From contig MEUE01000001.1 of assembly GCA_001771585.1 (NCBI GenBank), positions 21,062-85,061 of the forward strand: a stretch of 64,000 nt of DNA, in the 5' to 3' direction. The notes below the pieces were generated by a model, which worked only from the letters and a program-made list of their open reading frames with translations, did no database searches and was not told the origin of the DNA. Below, one piece after another: positions 5,686 through 55,828 of this stretch; positions within the stretch are counted from its first letter, which is position 1; the number at the start of each line of letters is the position of its first letter. The position numbers and the translations under genes are program-made. Origin of the DNA: a candidate division WOR-1 bacterium RIFOXYB2_FULL_46_45. GTDB taxonomy: Bacteria; Margulisbacteria; WOR-1; XYC2-FULL-46-14.

Positions 5686-7002
5686 TTGTTTTAGCGGAAA
5701 AACATTCCCAATATTCAAAATTAACCCCGGATCAAACCCTTTCTTAATTTGGATCATTCCGGCAATCCCGGAATCGCCGTACATTTCCCTTAAGTAATCG
5801 TGCTTAATTTTGCCGATCCCGTGTTCGGCGGAGACGGTCCCGCCAAGAGAGACCGCTTTTTTGACAAATTTCATGATGAGCTCTTTTGCCAACGGAATAT
5901 CCGCCTGTGTTCTTGGGACCAGATTGACATGCAGATGGCTCTGCCCAATGTGTCCAAACTTGACATAAAACAGTTGTAAGTCGTAAGTACTAAGTACTAA
6001 GTTGTAAAAAGCAAACATCTCACGGAATTTTGAATCCGGGACAGCTATATCTGATGCGAATTTGACGGTGTGGTGTTTCTTGAATTCCTCATTGATATGT
6101 TCCGGCATCGAGTGGCGGAATTCCCACAGTTCTTCTTTCTGCTTTTCATTCATCCCCACCCAGGTCTCCCCCTCAAGCTCCAAATAGTTGTCGTCAACAA
6201 TTTTTTGTTCAAAATAAATCGCGCACTTTTTCCCTTTGCCGAGCAATTCAATCGAATTAAAATCAAAATACTCAATCATCAAAATATCTTCTCGCTCTCT
6301 CAGTTTTTCGGTAAGGTCTATCGCTGCCTCTTCTGAATCCAAAAAAACAATACAGTCAAAAGTGTTTTCGATCCGATCAATCAGGTTTACTTCAATTTCA
6401 GAAACAATCCCCAAGGTCCCTTCGCTTCCGATAAAAAGGTCAATCTGTTCCATATCCGGCGTGGAATAGTAGCCGGCCGAACTTTTCAGCCTTGGCAGTT
6501 CAAGCGGGCGGCTTCGGGTTAAGCTTAGAATTTCTCCGGTGCTTAAGATGACTTTTAACCGTTTAATGTGGTTTCTGGTCGGGCCCATGCGTAAGCTCCG
6601 CGCACCGGAGGCGTTGGTCGCCACATTCCCGCCCAGATATGCGCTCTTTTCGGTCGGATCGGGGGCATACATTAAGCCCTCTTTTTTTAAGGCGTTATCA
6701 AGCTGGTCCAAGCTCACTCCCGGCTGTATTAACGCCGTTTTGGCCTTTTTATCGATAGCTATTATTTGATTGAGTTTCTCGGTCGATAAGACCCAGCCGC
6801 CAAAGGGGATCCTCCCGCCGGTGGTCCCGGTCCCGGCACCGGAGATCGTCAGCGGGGTCTTTTTTGAAGAGCATTCTTTGACTGCTTCAAGGATTTCTTT
6901 GTCGTTTTCGGGGAGATAAGCCCCCTCCGCGTATCCTCCCTGCAAGTTTGAGCTGTCTTCCAAATATCCTTTGATCATGTCAGGATCGGTTTTTCTTAGC
7001 AT
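5662..7002 (-). CDS. FAD-linked oxidase (GlcD / D-lactate dehydrogenase family)
   Basis: TPLTISGAGTGTTGG is the FAD PCMH motif and VSAEHGIGKIKHDYL is a GlcD-type C-terminus. The 446-aa gene is convergent with the PtsI-like gene and overlaps its 3' end by 24 nt. Confidence 0.75.
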   Translation of the reverse strand: MLRKTDPDMIKGYLEDSSNLQGGYAEGAYLPENDKEILEAVKECSSKKTPLTISGAGTGTTGGRIPFGGWVLSTEKLNQIIAIDKKAKTALIQPGVSLDQLDNALKKEGLMYAPDPTEKSAYLGGNVATNASGARSLRMGPTRNHIKRLKVILSTGEILSLTRSRPLELPRLKSSAGYYSTPDMEQIDLFIGSEGTLGIVSEIEVNLIDRIENTFDCIVFLDSEEAAIDLTEKLREREDILMIEYFDFNSIELLGKGKKCAIYFEQKIVDDNYLELEGETWVGMNEKQKEELWEFRHSMPEHINEEFKKHHTVKFASDIAVPDSKFREMFAFYNLVLSTYDLQLFYVKFGHIGQSHLHVNLVPRTQADIPLAKELIMKFVKKAVSLGGTVSAEHGIGKIKHDYLREMYGDSGIAGMIQIKKGFDPGLILNIGNVFPLKQLSGNSAF

Positions 7003-7046: not shown

Positions 7047-7144
7047 TACACTATAATAAGCAACGAATAGGCTCGAACAAAAAAGTGGGAAAAACCCACT
7101 TTTGTCTTTAGAGGTAGGGAGGGGCAATATCCTCCCAAATAAAA

Positions 7145-8134: not shown

Positions 8135-10121
8135 GGTCAGCGCCCTGGCCAAAGAACTTGGCAAGACCAGCAAGGAATTGCTTGCGATCCTTAAAGATTT
8201 AGGGATCCCGGCCAAAACCCACGCCAGCACCATCGAAGAAGAATCTGTCAAAATAGTTAAAGAATTATTGGAACCAAAAAAGGTTGCCTCTCCCGTTCCG
8301 GTTCATCCCGTTCCCGTTCCGCCTCCACCTCTTCCTATTCCTACTCCTCCTATGCCTACGCCTATGCCTATGCCTATGCCTTCTCCCCCTCCCCAGGTTA
8401 AGTCGATTAAGATAAAGGGTGAGGGTATAATCGTCAAGGACCTTGCCGACCTCTTAAAAATAAAGACGACCGATGTCATCAAAGAGCTGATGAAGAAGGG
8501 GTTCCTATTAAACATTAACCAATCGCTAAACGCCGAAGTGGCCAAACAGGTGGCGGAGCAATTCGGTTTTACCGTTGAGGTTGTTATGCGGGAAGAGAAG
8601 AAGCACGAAGTCCTTTTGTCCGACCTGCACGAATTAAAAACGCGTCCTCCGGTGGTAACGATTATGGGACATGTCGACCACGGAAAAACAAAACTACTCG
8701 ATGCGATCCGCGCAACCAAAGTCGCCGAGTCCGAAGCGGGGGGGATCACCCAGCACATCGGCGCATATCAAGTTGAAATCAAGGGGAAGAAAATTACTTT
8801 CCTCGATACCCCCGGCCACGAGGCCTTTACCGCTCTGCGTGCCAGGGGAGCCAAAGCTACCGATATCGCGGTCTTAGTCGTGGCGGCCGATGATGGGGTG
8901 ATGCCGCAGACGATCGAAGCGATCGACCACGCCAAAGCGGCGGGGGTCCCAATCATTGTGGCCATAAATAAAGTAGATAAGCCGGATTCCAATCCGGATA
9001 AAGTTAAACAACAATTGACCGAACACAAATTGGTTTCGGAGGATTGGGGGGGAGACACTATCATGCTCCCGGTTTCCGCCAAAAATAAGACCGGGATAGA
9101 CGAACTGCTGGAGATGATCCTTCTGGTGGCCGAAGTCCAGGAACTGAAAGCCAATCCGGGAGTTCCGGCAACCGGAGTCGTTATCGAATCAAAATTAGAC
9201 AAGGGGAGAGGGCCGGTCGCGACAATATTGATAAAGAACGGGACCCTGAAGGTTGGCGACGCTTTTGTCGCCGGCAAGGCCTACGGGAAAATTCGGGCCC
9301 TGATCAATAGCTTCGGAAAACGGGTCAATAAGGGCTTTCCCTCTTCTCCCGTGGAAATCCTGGGAGCATCGATTGTTCCCCAGCCGGGAGAACTTTTTGA
9401 AGTAGTCGCGGATGACAAGGTTGCCCGTCAGACGGCGGAAGATAATCTTGCCAGCCAAAAATTTTCACAGCACGGGGCGCAGACGCTTGAAAGCTTCAGC
9501 CAAAAAATAAAAGAAGGGGAAAGGAACGACCTTAAGATAGTACTAAAAGCGGATGTGCAGGGATCGCTCGAAGCGATCGCGCAGTCCCTCCAAACTCTTG
9601 AAGTTAACATTATCCACGCTCAGGTGGGAGAAATTTCCGAAAGCGATGTCCTGCTGGCGGAAGCGTCAAACGCGATCATCATCGGGTTTAACACTCTGGT
9701 TTCATCAAGAGCCCGCGAAATCGCCCGGACCGAAGGGGTTAATATCCGTCTTTATAATATTATTTATAAGGTAATAGACGACGTCAAAAAGGCGATGGAG
9801 GGCTTGCTGGCGATAGAGTATGAGGAAGTCGTGATCGGCAAGGGAGAAGTTCGGAACACCTTTAAATATTCAAAAGTCGGCGTAATCGCCGGTTGTTTTG
9901 TCCTTTCCGGAAAAATTGTGCGGGGCGCCGGTTTAAGAGTATTCCGCGATTCCAAGCTTATTTACGAAGGAAAAGTTGAAAACCTAAAAAGATTTAAAGA
10001 TGACGTAAAAGAGGTCCTGGAGGGCTTTGAATGCGGGGTTTCGATAAACGGCTACGAAGATTTCAAAGAAAAAGACCAGCTGGAAATTTTCGAAATGAGG
10101 GAAAAAGGAAAGAGTGAATAA
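8100..10121 (+). CDS. infB: Translation initiation factor IF-2
   Basis: The N-domain reads LRVSALAKELGKTSKELL. G-domain motifs are GHVDHGKTKLLD, DTPGH and NKVD. The 673-aa gene overlaps the nusA 3' end by 35 nt in another frame. Confidence 0.95.
   Translation: MAKKAPTKKTLRVSALAKELGKTSKELLAILKDLGIPAKTHASTIEEESVKIVKELLEPKKVASPVPVHPVPVPPPPLPIPTPPMPTPMPMPMPSPPPQVKSIKIKGEGIIVKDLADLLKIKTTDVIKELMKKGFLLNINQSLNAEVAKQVAEQFGFTVEVVMREEKKHEVLLSDLHELKTRPPVVTIMGHVDHGKTKLLDAIRATKVAESEAGGITQHIGAYQVEIKGKKITFLDTPGHEAFTALRARGAKATDIAVLVVAADDGVMPQTIEAIDHAKAAGVPIIVAINKVDKPDSNPDKVKQQLTEHKLVSEDWGGDTIMLPVSAKNKTGIDELLEMILLVAEVQELKANPGVPATGVVIESKLDKGRGPVATILIKNGTLKVGDAFVAGKAYGKIRALINSFGKRVNKGFPSSPVEILGASIVPQPGELFEVVADDKVARQTAEDNLASQKFSQHGAQTLESFSQKIKEGERNDLKIVLKADVQGSLEAIAQSLQTLEVNIIHAQVGEISESDVLLAEASNAIIIGFNTLVSSRAREIARTEGVNIRLYNIIYKVIDDVKKAMEGLLAIEYEEVVIGKGEVRNTFKYSKVGVIAGCFVLSGKIVRGAGLRVFRDSKLIYEGKVENLKRFKDDVKEVLEGFECGVSINGYEDFKEKDQLEIFEMREKGKSE
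8290..8400 (+). repeat. Proline-rich tandem repeat (PVP / PMPTPMPMPMP) encoding the IF-2 inter-domain linker
   Basis: ccgttcccgttccg and cctatgcctacgcctatgcctatgcctatgcct are directly repeated 6-9-nt units. Confidence 0.7.
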
Positions 10122-10524: not shown

Positions 10525-11424
10525 GACCATTTTAATTGCCGGACACATCGATCCCGACGGCGATACTTTGGGATCGATGGTCGCGCTCAAGATTATTCTT
10601 GAAAAGCTCGGCAAATCGGCAGAAATGTTTTCCCAAGACGGTGTCCCCGAAAATTATCTTTTTCTTCCCCGGTCGGCAGAGATCAAAAAAGCTCCCTTGT
10701 TAAAAGAATATGACCTTCTGATAACGGTCGATGCCTCGGACCTGACCAGAGTAGGCGATTTAAAGGTTAAAGCTAAAAAAATTATCAATATCGACCACCA
10801 TGCCGACAATTCTAATTTCGGTGATATTAATTGTGTTGAACTGCTCTCATCCGTCGCCGAGCAAATTTACAAACTGGCGAAAGAGTTTAATGTAGAGATC
10901 ACCGAAGAGATTGCCCAGGGGCTTTATGTTTCGATCATAACCGATACCGGAAACTTTAGATATTCAAATACTCTCCCCAGTACTTTTCATACCGTTTGCG
11001 CCCTGGTCGGCAGCGGAGTTATTCCTTGGCAGATCGCGTCAAATGTGTACGACAACCGGACAATCCCAAGCATGAAGGTTTTGGCGTATGCGTTGGAAAA
11101 GATCAAGACGGCGAAAAACGGGCGTTTGATCTGGTCAACCGTTTCTCTTTCCGCCATAAAAAAGAAAAAGGCCAATCATGAGGACTTGATCAGTGTGATC
11201 GACTATTTGAGGTCGGTTAAAGGGATTGAGATCGCGGTTTTTATAAGGGAAGAAGAGAAAAATAAAATCAAGGTCAACTTCCGTTCAAGGGGAAGGGCCA
11301 ATGTCTCCAAAATTGCAAGAGAGCTGGGAGGTGGGGGACACATCCAGGCGGCCGGGACCACTCTCAAGATGCCGATAGCCAAAGCGGAAAAAAAGGTTAT
11401 TAAAACGGTCCTCAAATACCTCTA

Positions 11425-11425: not shown

Positions 11426-14086
<2,661 letters not shown>

Positions 14087-14094
14087 ATTTCTTA

Positions 14095-14300
14095 AGGCGT
14101 AGGCACAGGCATAGGCAAAGGTAAGGCATAGGAAAGGAAGAGAGAAATTGGGTATGGATGCGGGCTTGAAAGTAGAAGGGGATAATAGAAGTTAGATCCA
14201 ATCTCCAAACCAATTTCCATTTTCAAACTAGCTTCAATTCCCAAACCCTTATTCCTTTCACTCCTTTACCTTCCTACGCCTGCGCCTATGCCTGCGCCTT
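14095..14300. repeat. Long imperfect inverted repeat built of YAGGCR hexamers (arms about 14095-14147 and 14252-14300)
   Basis: The left arm is aaggcgtaggcacaggcataggcaaaggtaaggcataggaaaggaa. The reverse complement of the right arm is aaggcgcaggcataggcgcaggcgtaggaaggtaaaggagtgaaaggaa. It lies between convergent ligA and pgi. Confidence 0.7.
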
Positions 14301-14324
14301 GTTTTGTAAGGGGGAGATTATAGT

Positions 14325-14340
14325 GGGGGTAGCTACCCCC
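14325..14340. repeat. Perfect 16-bp palindrome GGGGGTAGCTACCCCC
   Basis: The sequence is self-complementary and lies 35 nt downstream of the pgi (minus-strand) stop codon. Confidence 0.8.
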
Positions 14341-14374
14341 GCAAAAAGGCCTCCAGCGTGGCACATCCGATTAA

Positions 14375-15820
14375 TTATACCGCTGCTCTAAATTGTAAAT
14401 TTGCACCATCATCTTGTTCTGTTGCAGGATTTTTAAGTAGAGCCATTGCAGCATTTTTATAGGCAACTACTCCCGGTTGGATAAATGGATTTTGAACTTT
14501 TGTAGCTAATGATGAAAGAGCGGCAACATTTCTTTCCAATTGATACCATTTTGCCATTACATATTCAGATAATTCGGGAAGCAAATAGCTCATTGTTGGA
14601 ACGCCGCCTTGATAATGTGCGCTTTCAAGCCCATCTATAAATGCGTTGTTTACAAGATGCAGTGACTTACCATCGACAAATTCAACAGGGGTTCCTTTCG
14701 CCGGAATGAGGACGTCAACTCCCGGATCTTCAACCTTTAAGAATGTTTCAATAAAAATTCTTGGTCCTTCTTGAATCATTTGTCCATTGGCGTGCGCCAT
14801 CTCTGTGTAAAGTTCAGGGGTAACCCAAAGTCCCAGTCCTTTTTTCCCTTCTGTTTCGGGAAAAACCTGTTGTGCTTCTTTGGCTGCCGCCCATAAATCC
14901 TGCATGCCGGTTGCGTACACTTCGATTGCTTTACCCCAGTTCGTCATTGCAACCGCGCGCATTGTGGCACGAAGAAAAGCGGGATTGCTTTCCAGTGAAT
15001 TATTTCTGGTTGCTTCTTCACCATCTTTTGCTCCAGCGACAAAACTTATAATATCTAATCCTCCCAGCGCTAAAACAAATAATCCGGCGTCTGTCAGCAC
15101 GGAATACCTGCCTCCAATATTATCCGGAACCACAAAACGTTTTAATCCCAATTTATTGGCGAATTCCAAAAGAGCTCCTTTTGATTTGTCGGTCAATGCC
15201 ACAATTCTTGATGCTATTTCTTCCGCGGAGTAACTTTCATCCATTGCCGCCTTTATTATTGCAAAAGCAATTGCCGGTTCCATGGTTGTTCCGGATTTTG
15301 AATAGACAGAGCCGGCGACTTGTCTTCCTTTCATAAGTTGAAGCTGTCTAGCCATCGCACGGGGATCCATATTGTTGCCAATGAACCAAAGCCTTGGTCC
15401 GCCTCTTTCTTCTCTGCTCATTGCATTCGTTTGTTCCAGGTTTCCTTTTACCGCCTCGATCATTGCTCTTCCGCCAAGATATGATCCTCCAATACCATCC
15501 ATCCAAATGTCATCCGAAATTTCCCTTAACGCATTTGCTGCTGCTGTAATGTCCCTGAGTTCCGCTTCGGATCTGTAAGGGGCTTCTCTTTTCCATCCAA
15601 CCATTGGGATACCACCATCTTGTATATTGGGATCAGCATTATCGTTTAATAACTTGTCTTGAAATCGCGGCATTTCATCCGCTATTTTTTTAAAAGCGGT
15701 GTCTTCTGTAATATGTGATCCAGGGGATCCAAATCGACGGTAATCTAACACAATTTTTGTTTTACTTATTGGGCCGCCCGTTCGAGCAATAACTCCTGCC
15801 GGTATACGTAATCCCGCCAT
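14375..15820 (-). CDS. pgi: Glucose-6-phosphate isomerase
   Basis: The PGI family signature DNIGGRYSVLTDAGL is present in the 481-aa product. Confidence 0.85.
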   Translation of the reverse strand: MAGLRIPAGVIARTGGPISKTKIVLDYRRFGSPGSHITEDTAFKKIADEMPRFQDKLLNDNADPNIQDGGIPMVGWKREAPYRSEAELRDITAAANALREISDDIWMDGIGGSYLGGRAMIEAVKGNLEQTNAMSREERGGPRLWFIGNNMDPRAMARQLQLMKGRQVAGSVYSKSGTTMEPAIAFAIIKAAMDESYSAEEIASRIVALTDKSKGALLEFANKLGLKRFVVPDNIGGRYSVLTDAGLFVLALGGLDIISFVAGAKDGEEATRNNSLESNPAFLRATMRAVAMTNWGKAIEVYATGMQDLWAAAKEAQQVFPETEGKKGLGLWVTPELYTEMAHANGQMIQEGPRIFIETFLKVEDPGVDVLIPAKGTPVEFVDGKSLHLVNNAFIDGLESAHYQGGVPTMSYLLPELSEYVMAKWYQLERNVAALSSLATKVQNPFIQPGVVAYKNAAMALLKNPATEQDDGANLQFRAAV

Positions 15821-38878: not shown

Positions 38879-39744
38879 ATTTACCCGGCCTAAAACTTTT
38901 TCGCAAGGGAAAAGTGCGCAATGTCTTTGACTTGGGAGATAAACTGCTCCTGGTCGCCTCCGACCGCATTTCCGCCTTTGATTCGGTCATGCCCAATGGG
39001 ATCCCGGATAAAGGGAAAATCCTAACCCAGATATCGCTTTTTTGGTTTGATTTAGTAAAAGATATTATTCCCAATCACGTCATTTCAGCCGATGTGAATG
39101 ATTTCCCGATTGAACTTCAAAAATACAAAAAACAATTGGAGAAGCGCTCCATGCTTGGGAAAAAGGCCAAGGGAATTCCGGTTGAATGCGTGGTGCGCGG
39201 CTATCTCTCCGGCTCCGGTTGGAACGAATACCAAAAAAGCCGGACAATCTGTGGGATAAAACTGCCGGAAGGGCTAAAAGAATCTGACAAGCTTTCCGAA
39301 CCGATCTTTACCCCGACCACCAAGGCCGAACAGGGGCATGATTTGAATATCACTTTTGACGAAGTGATCGATACGGTCGGGAAAGAGACGGCCGATTTCA
39401 TCAAACAAAAGACGATTGAGGTCTATTCCGCCGCGGCGGAGTATGCCCTGAAAAAAGGGATAATAATTGCCGATACCAAATTTGAGTTTGGTTTTGTCGA
39501 CAATAAAATAATTCTGATTGACGAGATTTTGACCCCCGATTCTTCCCGTTTCTGGCCGGCCGACCAATACCGCCCGGGGAGCGGACAGCCCAGTTACGAC
39601 AAGCAATATGTCCGCAATTATCTGGTTTCAATCAAATGGGACAAGGAACCTCCCGCGCCAAAGCTTTCGGATGAGGTGGTAGAAAAAACGCGGGATAAGT
39701 ATATGGAAGCATACAGGATGATAACGGGGAAGATTAATTTATAG
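38854..39744 (+). CDS. purC: Phosphoribosylaminoimidazole-succinocarboxamide synthase
   Basis: LFRKGKVRNVFDLGDKLLLVASDRISAFD is the SAICAR synthetase signature. Confidence 0.9.
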   Translation: MEETLQDIDLPGLKLFRKGKVRNVFDLGDKLLLVASDRISAFDSVMPNGIPDKGKILTQISLFWFDLVKDIIPNHVISADVNDFPIELQKYKKQLEKRSMLGKKAKGIPVECVVRGYLSGSGWNEYQKSRTICGIKLPEGLKESDKLSEPIFTPTTKAEQGHDLNITFDEVIDTVGKETADFIKQKTIEVYSAAAEYALKKGIIIADTKFEFGFVDNKIILIDEILTPDSSRFWPADQYRPGSGQPSYDKQYVRNYLVSIKWDKEPPAPKLSDEVVEKTRDKYMEAYRMITGKINL

Positions 39745-40041
39745 CTTCTTCCATAATCTCGTCAGATCTCTTTTTCCGTGAATTATTCCCAATATTACAA
39801 TCCGTGAATCTTCCAACAGATAAATTAATCGGTAGTCGCTTACAAATAATTCCCTTATCTTGGAAGTATCGAATTCCGGAACAACTCGTCCTCTTTCCGA
39901 TAATTGACCAAGAGAATTAGCGGCATTGACGATGTCTTGTACAAAAGAGGCGGCGTAATAATGGGAATCCCTCGCTATGTATTCAGCAATGGATTCGAGA
40001 TCTTTGACTGATTCCTGTGCCCAGACTACTTTTCTAGCCAT
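39739..40041 (-). CDS. parE: Type II toxin-antitoxin system RelE/ParE-family toxin
   Basis: The 100-aa product reads VVWAQESVKDLESIAEYIARDS...RLIYLLEDSRIVILGIIHGKRDL, typical of ParE/RelE. Confidence 0.7.
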   Translation of the reverse strand: MARKVVWAQESVKDLESIAEYIARDSHYYAASFVQDIVNAANSLGQLSERGRVVPEFDTSKIRELFVSDYRLIYLLEDSRIVILGIIHGKRDLTRLWKKL

Positions 40042-40214
40042 TTGGACATCTTCTTTTCGACATCTTTTTGAGAGAGCAATCGTCCTTGTTCGGCATCTTC
40101 CAAACCGTGTTCAACCTTTTGAAGAACATAAAGGTGGTATTGCACATCTTCCAGAGAACAATCTTCCGGTAAACGGGTAAGGAGATTAGTTATTTCTTTT
40201 TTAATGCTTTGCAT
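40026..40214 (-). CDS. Putative antitoxin (addiction-module component) partner of the ParE-like toxin
   Basis: The 62-aa gene overlaps the toxin start by 16 nt. It contains ...HGLEDAEQGRLLSQKDVEKKMSKWL. Confidence 0.5.
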   Translation of the reverse strand: MQSIKKEITNLLTRLPEDCSLEDVQYHLYVLQKVEHGLEDAEQGRLLSQKDVEKKMSKWLEK

Positions 40215-40289
40215 TTGTTCCTCCTTTTATATCTACAACTATAAATTAGTATACCATATAAATAAACGGGCATATGCTATAATTCCCTT

Positions 40290-54670: not shown

Positions 54671-55828
54671 TCAACCCCTCTTCCCCGTAACCAACTGGGG
54701 AATTAAAAGATCACGGATTTTGGATAGATTTTGACTTTGATCAAGCAGGTTTGTAATTTTTGACCGGAGCATAGAAACCTTACTCTCAAAGTCTTCTAAT
54801 GTTTTTTTGTCTGGAACAAGTATATTGATCATTCCTACTTGTTTTGAATTTACGCTTTTCCTGGTAGTCCCACTTGATGAACCAACTACAAAGTTTTGAT
54901 ATTTTTCTGATATTAGAAAATAAAACAAAAAATAGCTTGTTAGCCGGCTCTTTATTTTTAATCTCATTAGATATGAGGCAAAAATTGCATCAACCTGCTT
55001 TTCACATATACCTATTTTCCCCGGATCAGCCATACGAATAATAAATATGTCCCCTTTTTGTATTGTGTATCTATTTTTATCATCTGCTTTAATTTCACAA
55101 CACGGCACAGATGACCAATTTATGTATGAAGTCTTATTAATATCCATACCTCGTAAAAACTTAACGCCGGATGTTTTGTCAATTGCTGATGTGGTAAACC
55201 CATATTGTGGTTGTATTAAATCCCCCAACCTCTTCACCCCCCACCCCTCCGGTATCTTGCCATACTCTGTCCCACTATCAACCATCTTAACCTTTTTATG
55301 GCAAGGAAATTTAAACTTCACAAACCACTCGGCATAAAGCCGCTGGGCTATTTCTTCCAGAATTTTGATCCGCTTTTCGTTGTTTTCAATCAGATCGTCG
55401 TAGGTGGAGAGGATGGAGGCGATGCGGGATTGGGTTGGGAGATCGGGACGATATGCAATAATTTGATTTAATAATCTTTGCGTCATTAATGGCTGGGCAG
55501 CGCCACCAGCATATTTATTTAAGTTTAATATCCTTAATAAATAATTGACATATGTCAAATTATTTTCTTCTTCATCAACTTTTGCAACTATTGTATTGTC
55601 AGAAGCCCAAAATCTACTTTTGCACATTTCAACGGATCCACAATAAGCGCCCACTCTACCTATTATTATTGCATTTTCATATTGGTATTCCTCAGATCCA
55701 CCAATGACCCCATTTGAACCAAAAACAGGATATCTCCCCTCTCCTCCAGGCCTTATTGATTTTCCATTAAAGAAATGTAATAAATCCCTTAATCTCACTT
55801 TCTTAAAATTTGCCTTATTTCTTTTCAA
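54671..55828 (-). CDS. hsdS: Type I restriction-modification specificity subunit (HsdS), two target-recognition domains
   Basis: The 385-aa product has HsdS-typical central and C-terminal conserved helices (LDDLIENNEKRIKILEEIAQRLY, LLDQSQNLSKIRDLLIPQLVTGK). Confidence 0.85.
   Translation of the reverse strand: MKRNKANFKKVRLRDLLHFFNGKSIRPGGEGRYPVFGSNGVIGGSEEYQYENAIIIGRVGAYCGSVEMCKSRFWASDNTIVAKVDEEENNLTYVNYLLRILNLNKYAGGAAQPLMTQRLLNQIIAYRPDLPTQSRIASILSTYDDLIENNEKRIKILEEIAQRLYAEWFVKFKFPCHKKVKMVDSGTEYGKIPEGWGVKRLGDLIQPQYGFTTSAIDKTSGVKFLRGMDINKTSYINWSSVPCCEIKADDKNRYTIQKGDIFIIRMADPGKIGICEKQVDAIFASYLMRLKIKSRLTSYFLFYFLISEKYQNFVVGSSSGTTRKSVNSKQVGMINILVPDKKTLEDFESKVSMLRSKITNLLDQSQNLSKIRDLLIPQLVTGKRG

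Follow-up and report, generated by a model that had tools for sequence, protein, structure and literature searches.

Palindromic selfish DNA carried in frame by housekeeping proteins has until now been known mainly from Rickettsia. RPEs are imperfect palindromes of ~100-150 bp that lie in intergenic DNA or in frame within housekeeping proteins, to which they add a peptide without destroying them (PMC10969869). Among elements of the MITE type, SPRITE has terminator-like ends, and the stem-loop of the QMITE2 transcript is quoted at about -113 (PMC10969869). [quoted passage not shown]

The DNA considered here is a stretch of 64 kb, referred to throughout as the window, in which the ends of ligA (12104-14086, + strand) and pgi (14375-15820, - strand) converge on a spacer of 288 bp. 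We read this spacer, with slightly better than even confidence, as a lineage-specific copy of a MITE/RPE-like palindromic repeat family, hitherto undescribed and termed family A, with a conserved core of ~110 bp; that the element belongs to a dispersed or mobile palindromic family is judged rather probable. Mirrored, degenerate hexamer arrays extend the core of the window copy on either side, and two small palindromes, hp1 and hp2, frame the whole, giving a quasi-palindrome of 205-276 bp.

The likeness to RPEs is one of architecture. The family-A core recurs as a 120-nt in-frame insert in a putative surface loop of TruB, the gene remaining intact, whereas the host is a free-living groundwater member of the Margulisiibacteriota, an unrelated phylum. 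Two family-A copies were found, as against dozens per Rickettsia genome, and the arms of the window copy are long, mirrored microsatellites, for which RPEs are not known. Like bacterial MITEs (Correia, ERIC, QMITE2), the element is shorter than 500 bp, non-coding, mainly intergenic and devoid of a transposase gene; its ends are inverted repeats, it is predicted to form a very stable stem-loop when transcribed and, like SPRITE, it could supply a terminator-like structure. It differs from MITEs in not being AT-rich, its GC content of 45% being that of the genome, and in having terminal repeats made of hexamers of low complexity, a kind of sequence commonly discarded by MITE finders. With Nostoc P6b and the cyanobacterial STRR heptamers it shares arms of degenerate short tandem repeats paired with mirrored repeats, although P6b is fixed within a group I intron, whereas the hairpins considered here are free-standing, with a conserved non-repeat core, and lie at different genomic sites. 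Margulisiibacteriota form a sister lineage of the Cyanobacteria. REP/BIME units differ in being GC-rich palindromes of 20-40 nt that are present many times per genome, the element being 5-10 times longer, and the window contains no pair like hp1 and hp2 besides these two.

Layout and predicted fold of the ligA-pgi spacer

Both genes are supported by Pfam (NAD-dependent ligase domains for ligA, PGI for pgi), which bears out the convergence described in an earlier note on this DNA. ligA is the final gene in the run nusA-infB-rbfA-DHH-truB-ligA, with truB directly upstream, while pgi appears to be monocistronic and is preceded by a promoter-like site at 15883-15856 on the - strand (TTGGCT-16-TATAAT, with TG upstream). 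The last ~7 codons of ligA (GLATPS*) fall within the outer part of the palindrome, and LigA extends at its C-terminus 1-3 aa beyond that of relatives.

The main part of the element is an imperfect palindrome of 205 bp (14095-14299), delimited by alignment to its own reverse complement and by its fold. Its left outer arm (14095-14143) consists of purine-rich, degenerate AGGCRY hexamers grading into AGGAA/AGAGA, and includes a tandem array at 14095-14132 (AGGCAT x6.5, period 6, TRF score 41). The right outer arm (14251-14299) is the pyrimidine-rich mirror of the left, ends in CCTACGCCTGCGCCTATGCCTGCGCCT and includes the mirror array at 14273-14299 (CCTACGCCTGCG x2.2, period 12, TRF score 47). 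In the outer arms, hexamers of AGGCRY and RYGCCT mirror each other, and the arms are also detected as inverted repeats (I1, 38 nt, 71%; I3, 28 nt, 79%), and the hexamer arm with its reverse-complement counterpart reported earlier is accordingly present in the sequence. Base composition is correspondingly skewed, with G39/C8 in the left half and C40/G7 in the right. The conserved core (14144-14262) is itself an imperfect palindrome, the symmetry centre lying at ~14197, and the ends of the element, AGGCGTAGGCA / TGCCTGCGCCT, pair with each other according to both the inverted repeats and the fold. What had been taken for a loop of ~100 nt is self-complementary, and the predicted loop in the MFE structure is an apical one of 17 nt (AAUAGAAGUUAGAUCCA, 14184-14200).

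Outside the arms, hp1 (GGGGTTGGCGACCCC, 14065-14079) is a small GC palindrome overlapping the end of ligA, and hp2 is the perfect palindrome GGGGGTAGCTACCCCC of 16 nt (14325-14340), correctly pointed out in the earlier note and followed by GCAAAAAGG. Since the window holds three perfect 16-nt palindromes, hp2 being one of them, such a length is not rare by itself. hp1 is a direct as well as an inverted copy of hp2 (D3, 24 nt, 79%; I4, 27 nt, 70%), and the two pair in the predicted fold of 14040-14380 (-126.6 kcal/mol, z -5.7). Through them, the symmetry extends outwards in weaker form to 14065-14340, or ~276 bp (I4, I17, D3), running via CCCCCTCATAAA/TTTGTAAGGGGG together with hp1 and hp2 and taking in the GGGGG...CCCCC palindrome.

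The region 14095-14299 matches its own reverse complement at 65.7% over 207 columns and is predicted to fold into one hairpin of 70 nested pairs (33 GC, 30 AU and 7 GU), in agreement with the ~200-nt hairpin expected from inspection. Folding of 14080-14380 as RNA gave -110.7 kcal/mol for the + strand and -110.1 for the - strand (z -5.4 and -5.7), the element being highly stable on both. When shuffling was carried out half by half, which preserves the purine-rich composition of the left side and the pyrimidine-rich composition of the right, the fold had a z of about -5.9 and none of 300 shuffles was as stable; the arm-to-arm alignment score was likewise beyond all of 1,000 shuffles (z 5.7). Apart from the ligA-pgi element, only one palindrome of the 64-kb window exceeds 100 bp. 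The element is the sole low-GC outlier among 240-nt sliding windows, and among the most stable of those listed it alone forms a single hairpin. By these models, the structure of the palindrome exceeds chance. Between the arms there are 20 transitions and 16 transversions, in addition to 30 gap columns, and the mismatches compatible with G-U pairing number 8 on the + strand and 12 on the - strand, giving no sign of selection on the RNA of either strand. The idea that long palindromes are inherently rare was ruled out with 367 kb of control loci from Clostridia, where 23 palindromes measure 80 bp or more; these control palindromes are repeats of complex sequence, without microsatellite arms.

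The site in relatives and related elements elsewhere

Five independent Rifle contigs encoding an identical Pgi have spacers that are 100% identical, so they offer neither population variation nor repeat-number polymorphism. The comparison also covered nine relatives with convergent ligA and pgi, the closer ones coming from a LigA protein search, and the element is absent at the orthologous site in all nine. Eight of these have spacers of -11 to 63 nt (among them L072 with 63, L052 with 57, L051 with 34, L034 with 9, L054 with 2, L053 with -8 and L073 with -11 nt), and the spacer of L050, of 566 nt, contains two unrelated small ORFs. Short hairpins of the terminator type occupy the spacers of two relatives: that of L052 is a textbook bidirectional terminator, AAAAAAGCCCTTAGTGAAATTCACTAAGGGCTTT, and that of L051 a compact hairpin, AAACCTGCGAC-TAAAC-GTCGCGGTTT. 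The matches listed by scans of genome and metagenome contig collections with LigA were relatives of at most 70% identity, without the element. Given the spacers of the relatives, sequence comparison shows the 288-bp element to be a lineage-specific insertion, its place in relatives being normally empty or taken by a short terminator.

When the loci of the relatives were scanned blind for self-complementarity, a palindrome of 120 nt (6506-6625) emerged within truB of L055, a related genome whose LigA is 71% identical. The insert is in frame, truB is intact on both sides of it, and it adds ~40 aa (LGLGLGLDAGLKMDNGNGKLVQTTNTHLPIPNSFPNPNL) to a TruB loop before the conserved CSKGTYIR. The window core (14144-14262) matches this palindrome with an nhmmer E of 1e-7 and a Smith-Waterman score of 63, against 18 +/- 2.9 for half-preserving dinucleotide shuffles, none of 2,000 reaching it. 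Strings common to the two include TGGATGCGGGYTTGAA, GAAGTTAG.TCCAA and CAAACT.G.TTC...CCCAAACC, and the L055 copy ends in TTGGGTTTGGGTTTAGG / CCAAACCCAAACCTAA. The truB flanks show no similarity to the window spacer. On this evidence, the core is very probably homologous to the truB insert. Identity between the same arms of the two copies amounts to 75-77%, whereas the arms within a copy are complementary at 61-67%, so the family consensus is itself an imperfect palindrome, like that of other dispersed families of palindromes; as far as the alignments reveal, both copies go back to one imperfect-palindrome master rather than having formed independently. The window frame homologous to the truB insert reads LGMDAGLKVEGDNRS*IQSPNQFPFSN*LQFPNPYSF, its two stops fitting an intergenic location.

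Among 104 clade TruBs that were measured, out of the 120 best matches to the L055 protein, roughly one fifth have an extended loop at the position of the insert. Several of the loop inserts share G(L/V)DAGL ... PNP.(P)I(S/T)F, and several have the polarity of L055, from purine codons to pyrimidine codons. The truB insert could be an old, vertically inherited loop. Insert-related peptides were found in TruB orthologues only. A word-indexed protein search with the 43-aa insert peptide gave no candidates, and a profile of three insert peptides returned, from 1.84 billion representative proteins, five matches, all of them unrelated repetitive proteins.

The family-A copies recovered number two, one in each of two genomes and at different sites. 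Neither ~81 kb of this genome (the window, with 8 kb on its left side and 9 kb on its right) nor ~150 kb of other clade loci yielded another. The suggestion of a MITE-like repeat consequently gains from the homology of the core to an insertion at another site in a related genome, but not from the search for a second copy in the ~81 kb. Blastn of the element against plasmid and phage collections gave no match, and no related IS or other autonomous partner came to light. No clear target-site duplication surrounds the window element: the 24-nt flanking direct repeat D3 (79%) is itself palindromic and could equally well be the outermost part of the palindrome. In L055, TAATAA occurs near both ends, a weak indication as the flanks are AT-rich, and TGCCTGCCGGCAGGCA, a small palindrome of the L055 truB, is not present in the window. 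Several other candidates were discarded: a 17-mer of the core occurs in viral contigs as 16 chance matches, none extending past the seed; a weak nhmmer match at 54681-54763 of the window is ordinary coding sequence; and the heptamer repeat (AAGGATT)x4 in ligA is native coding sequence rather than an insertion. Consensus folding of both family-A copies with RNAalifold gave no useful signal, the indels displacing the arms and two sequences being too few.

A second family of mirrored-repeat hairpins, termed B, is represented in the window at 1340-1465, between mdh and the groES promoter/CIRCE, by heptamers TAAAYTC / TTTAGRR with the pyrimidine-type arm first (fold -29.5 kcal/mol, z -4.4). Copies were recovered with a profile (nhmmer) in L051 (4663-4779) and L052 (2497-2615), in both cases between a glcD-like gene and the nusA promoter, and the homology is well beyond shuffled sequence (Smith-Waterman z 10, 0/2000). 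The glcD-nusA position of the window has no family-B hairpin, and the family thus stands at different sites in different genomes (mdh-groES in the window, glcD-nusA in L051 and L052). As its polarity cannot be converted into that of the ligA-pgi element by reverse complementation, it is treated as a separate family.

Transcription and termination at the convergent ends

On the + strand, a GC-rich basal stem of 11 bp (AGGCGUAGGCA/UGCCUGCGCCU, 14095-14105 with 14289-14299) begins 9 nt past the ligA stop and is followed at once by the U-rich tract UGUUUUGU (TGTTTTGT, 14300-14307), identified by reading of the sequence and by the fold. On the - strand, the pgi side has the tail UAAGAAAUUUAU, and the combination of a GC-rich stem with a U-tract is found on the + strand only. 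The bidirectional terminator proposed in the earlier note consequently keeps its predicted hairpin and the U-rich tract on the ligA side, but not the pgi side, where no U-tract follows. The element resembles terminators of that kind in lying between convergent stops, where L051 and L052 have a compact hairpin, and in its basal stem with the adjoining tract on the ligA strand. It departs from them in a stem of ~70 bp rather than the usual 5-20 bp, in the lack of A-tract/U-tract symmetry and in the presence of hp2, whose A-run lies 3' on the + strand; being on the wrong side, this run does not make hp2 a canonical terminator for either gene. With 70 nested pairs over 205 nt, the stem falls outside the dimensions of a compact terminator (stem ~5-20 bp, loop 3-8 nt). 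A simple terminator scan restricted to loops of at most 8 nt returned nothing in the spacer, but since the scan is blind to long-loop hairpins and was not enriched over shuffles in this genome, its silence weighs little.

Taken separately, the two halves are predicted to fold weakly, at -9.8 kcal/mol for the purine-rich 5' half and -5.3 for the other, and the hairpin should therefore zip up co-transcriptionally. During transcription of nusA-ligA, the 5' half would at first remain mostly unfolded, the emerging pyrimidine-rich 3' half would then pair with it, and closure of the basal stem just before UGUUUUGU would end or stabilise the ligA transcript. Tentatively, and with somewhat less than even confidence, we infer from the modelled fold that the element may terminate the nusA-ligA operon on the ligA strand. 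For pgi, a structural roadblock or 3' stabiliser is likelier than a canonical terminator, and the element would have at most such an effect.

Origin of the element and alternative readings

Among the options raised in the earlier note, the MITE-like repeat is the best supported, a terminator is plausible for ligA only, and an sRNA gene is unsupported. A mechanism known for quasi-palindromes is their correction by template switching. As a member of family A, the element would have arrived by transposition or a copy event, as with elements of the MITE/RPE type; its arms would then have expanded by slippage of AGGCRY, mirrored across the hairpin, P6b of Nostoc being a precedent for hairpins of mirrored degenerate short repeats (PMC3488679). 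The short terminator that relatives have between the convergent genes would have been displaced or absorbed by the element.

The main alternative, which we consider unlikely, is a local, non-mobile origin without any family: formation in place around a short terminator of the ancestor, by inverted duplication or a template switch and accompanied by microsatellite slippage, or else a one-off segmental copy of the truB loop, with the hairpin as a neutral by-product or an enlarged terminator. It would account for the single copy in 81 kb of this genome and for arms made of low-complexity hexamers, the type that slippage produces; the palindrome reaches the last codons of ligA, with a small GC hairpin duplicated on both sides, and truB, the sole other host of the core, adjoins ligA upstream. 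There is also a precedent in the mirrored short-repeat hairpins of the Nostoc P6b, which vary by repeat number (PMC3488679). Against it, the core is not of low complexity and occurs in the copy of another genome with unrelated flanks, and the arms were already distinct before the two copies diverged, which points to the common imperfect-palindrome master. Family B, moreover, has the same architecture and likewise occupies non-orthologous sites.

Returning to the dispersed palindromic family, its extension to the phylum is possible, though we hold it at less than even confidence. Free-living Margulisiibacteriota (of the WOR-1/Saganbacteria type) may carry undescribed selfish palindromic families, RPE-like, in intergenic sites and also within essential proteins (TruB, for example), there in permissive, putative surface loops. 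Their arms would consist of degenerate tandem repeats, with units of 6-7 nt, that grow as mirror images. The families would fall into two polarity classes, one with the purine-rich arm first (the ligA-pgi element and the truB insert) and one with the pyrimidine-rich arm first (1340-1465, L051 and L052), some copies having been co-opted as operon terminators. On two copies the finding is modest, and its interest would rise if a genome-wide search confirmed an RPE-like family in the phylum, as selfish palindromes lying in frame within housekeeping proteins would then be known from a free-living, uncultured phylum too. If the reading is true, the conserved core with its variable mirrored arms would also offer a tractable case of long-hairpin growth, and a case of an insertion taking the place of the compact terminator of two converging genes. 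In annotation terms, the result accounts for the unusual length of this spacer in a gene-dense genome of 1.67 Mb and advises caution against labelling the spacer as an sRNA gene or a small ORF.

A dedicated functional RNA under selection, whether an sRNA or a cis-regulatory 3'-UTR element, is improbable. Its fold is very stable on both strands, and in one version of this explanation the left arm pairs with the infB linker, to which it is ~78% complementary (8329-8382) and with which it shares a putative operon transcript. The matching repeat, (CCTAYG)n, is however absent from the infB of relatives, as is the element from this site in all of them, and the G-U-compatible mismatches favour neither strand. 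No promoter-like site was found in the spacer. Comparison with Rfam gave nothing at gathering score in the whole window, the best sub-threshold matches to the element being plant miRNA-precursor models, MIR2118 and MIR6462 (24 bits, the thresholds being 85 and 96), which are hit because the element is a long hairpin. The small-RNA gene envisaged earlier accordingly finds no backing in a promoter-like site, an Rfam family or a strand preference.

A small protein gene is highly improbable, even though short ORFs cross the spacer, which the earlier note described as accounted for by no ORF, because the 50-aa minus-strand ORF (14092-14244), whose Pro-X repeat tail (...LPLPMPVPTP) resembles the IF2 linker, starts with TTG like the 58-aa ORF that also crosses the spacer on that strand, neither has a family match, all five source annotations leave it uncalled, a near-mirror pseudo-ORF lies on the opposite strand, as in any palindrome, and two stops break up the frame whose homologue is translated in the truB insert.

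The DNA of the Pro-rich linker of infB (LPIPTPPMPTPMPMPMPS, 8328-8382, + strand) resembles both outer arms of the element, with 77.8% identity over 54 nt in blastn (E 2.5e-4). Local alignments of linker and arms reach z values of 8-11 against mononucleotide shuffles, a likeness that exceeds the shared hexamer and could reflect either ectopic copying, in one direction or the other, or convergence of a slippage-prone motif.

Mirrored-heptamer hairpins and neighbouring regulatory sites

A second long hairpin of the window, composed of mirrored heptamers (TAAAYTC/TTTAGRR), was located at 1340-1465, one end coinciding with the mdh stop codon and the other lying just upstream of the groES promoter. 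Its homologues in two related genomes (L051 4663-4779 and L052 2497-2615) are both situated upstream of nusA, and the three hairpins thus constitute one family, set apart from that of the ligA-pgi element, occupying different sites in different genomes. Ahead of groES/groEL, positions 1472-1527 encompass a strong promoter-like site (TTGACA-18-TACAAT with an upstream TG) and, downstream of it, a perfect CIRCE operator (TTAGCACTC-N9-GAGTGCTAA, 1501-1527) preceding both genes. Another hairpin, AAAAGTGGGAAAAACCCACTTTTG, separates the nusA promoter from the start of that gene (window 7083-7107) and is kept across relatives, at about 4852-4870 in L051 and about 2688-2712 in L052; it might serve the nusA-infB operon as a leader or attenuator.

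Insertions at the ligA-pgi site and in coding sequences

The ligA-pgi site takes different insertions in different lineages. In the closest relative (locus L050, LigA 81%), the spacer holds two small minus-strand ORFs of 67 and 122 aa (10658-11222), which have no Pfam match on record and could represent a toxin-antitoxin-like pair. The heptamer repeat (AAGGATT)x4.4 found within the ligA coding sequence itself (window 13801-13831) was also considered as an insertion and rejected, being native sequence according to alignment with relatives.

Within truB of a related genome (L055), the homologue of the ligA-pgi element core is a 120-nt palindrome inserted in frame (6506-6625), which adds approximately 40 amino acids ahead of the CSKGTYIR motif. 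Of the TruB orthologues measured in the clade, roughly one in five have extended and varied loops at this position. The N-terminal region of the same gene contains a perfect 16-nt GC palindrome, TGCCTGCCGGCAGGCA (6093-6108), absent from the window, that is inserted in frame and encodes ...CLPAG.... A related peptide, LPAGRQ, is present at two separate positions among other TruBs of the clade (P0127, P0130 and P0134), which points to another palindromic unit, small in size, with in-frame insertion.

In the infB linker, a (CCTAYG)n repeat encoding LPIPTPPMPTPMPMPMPS (window 8328-8382) is similar at the DNA level to the left and the right outer arm of the ligA-pgi element, and the similarity extends past the shared hexamer. 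The IF2 linkers of relatives are Pro-rich and do not carry this repeat.

Other regions of the window and its left flank

A 545-bp stretch devoid of a long plus-strand gene (39745-40289) includes a 100-aa ORF on the minus strand (39739-40041). Just left of the window, upstream of its start, locus L075 (1-5198) covers the terminal part of a giant gene whose called product runs to about 3,800-4,000 aa and gives faint domain matches to CHU_C, Big_13, and FlgD_ig.
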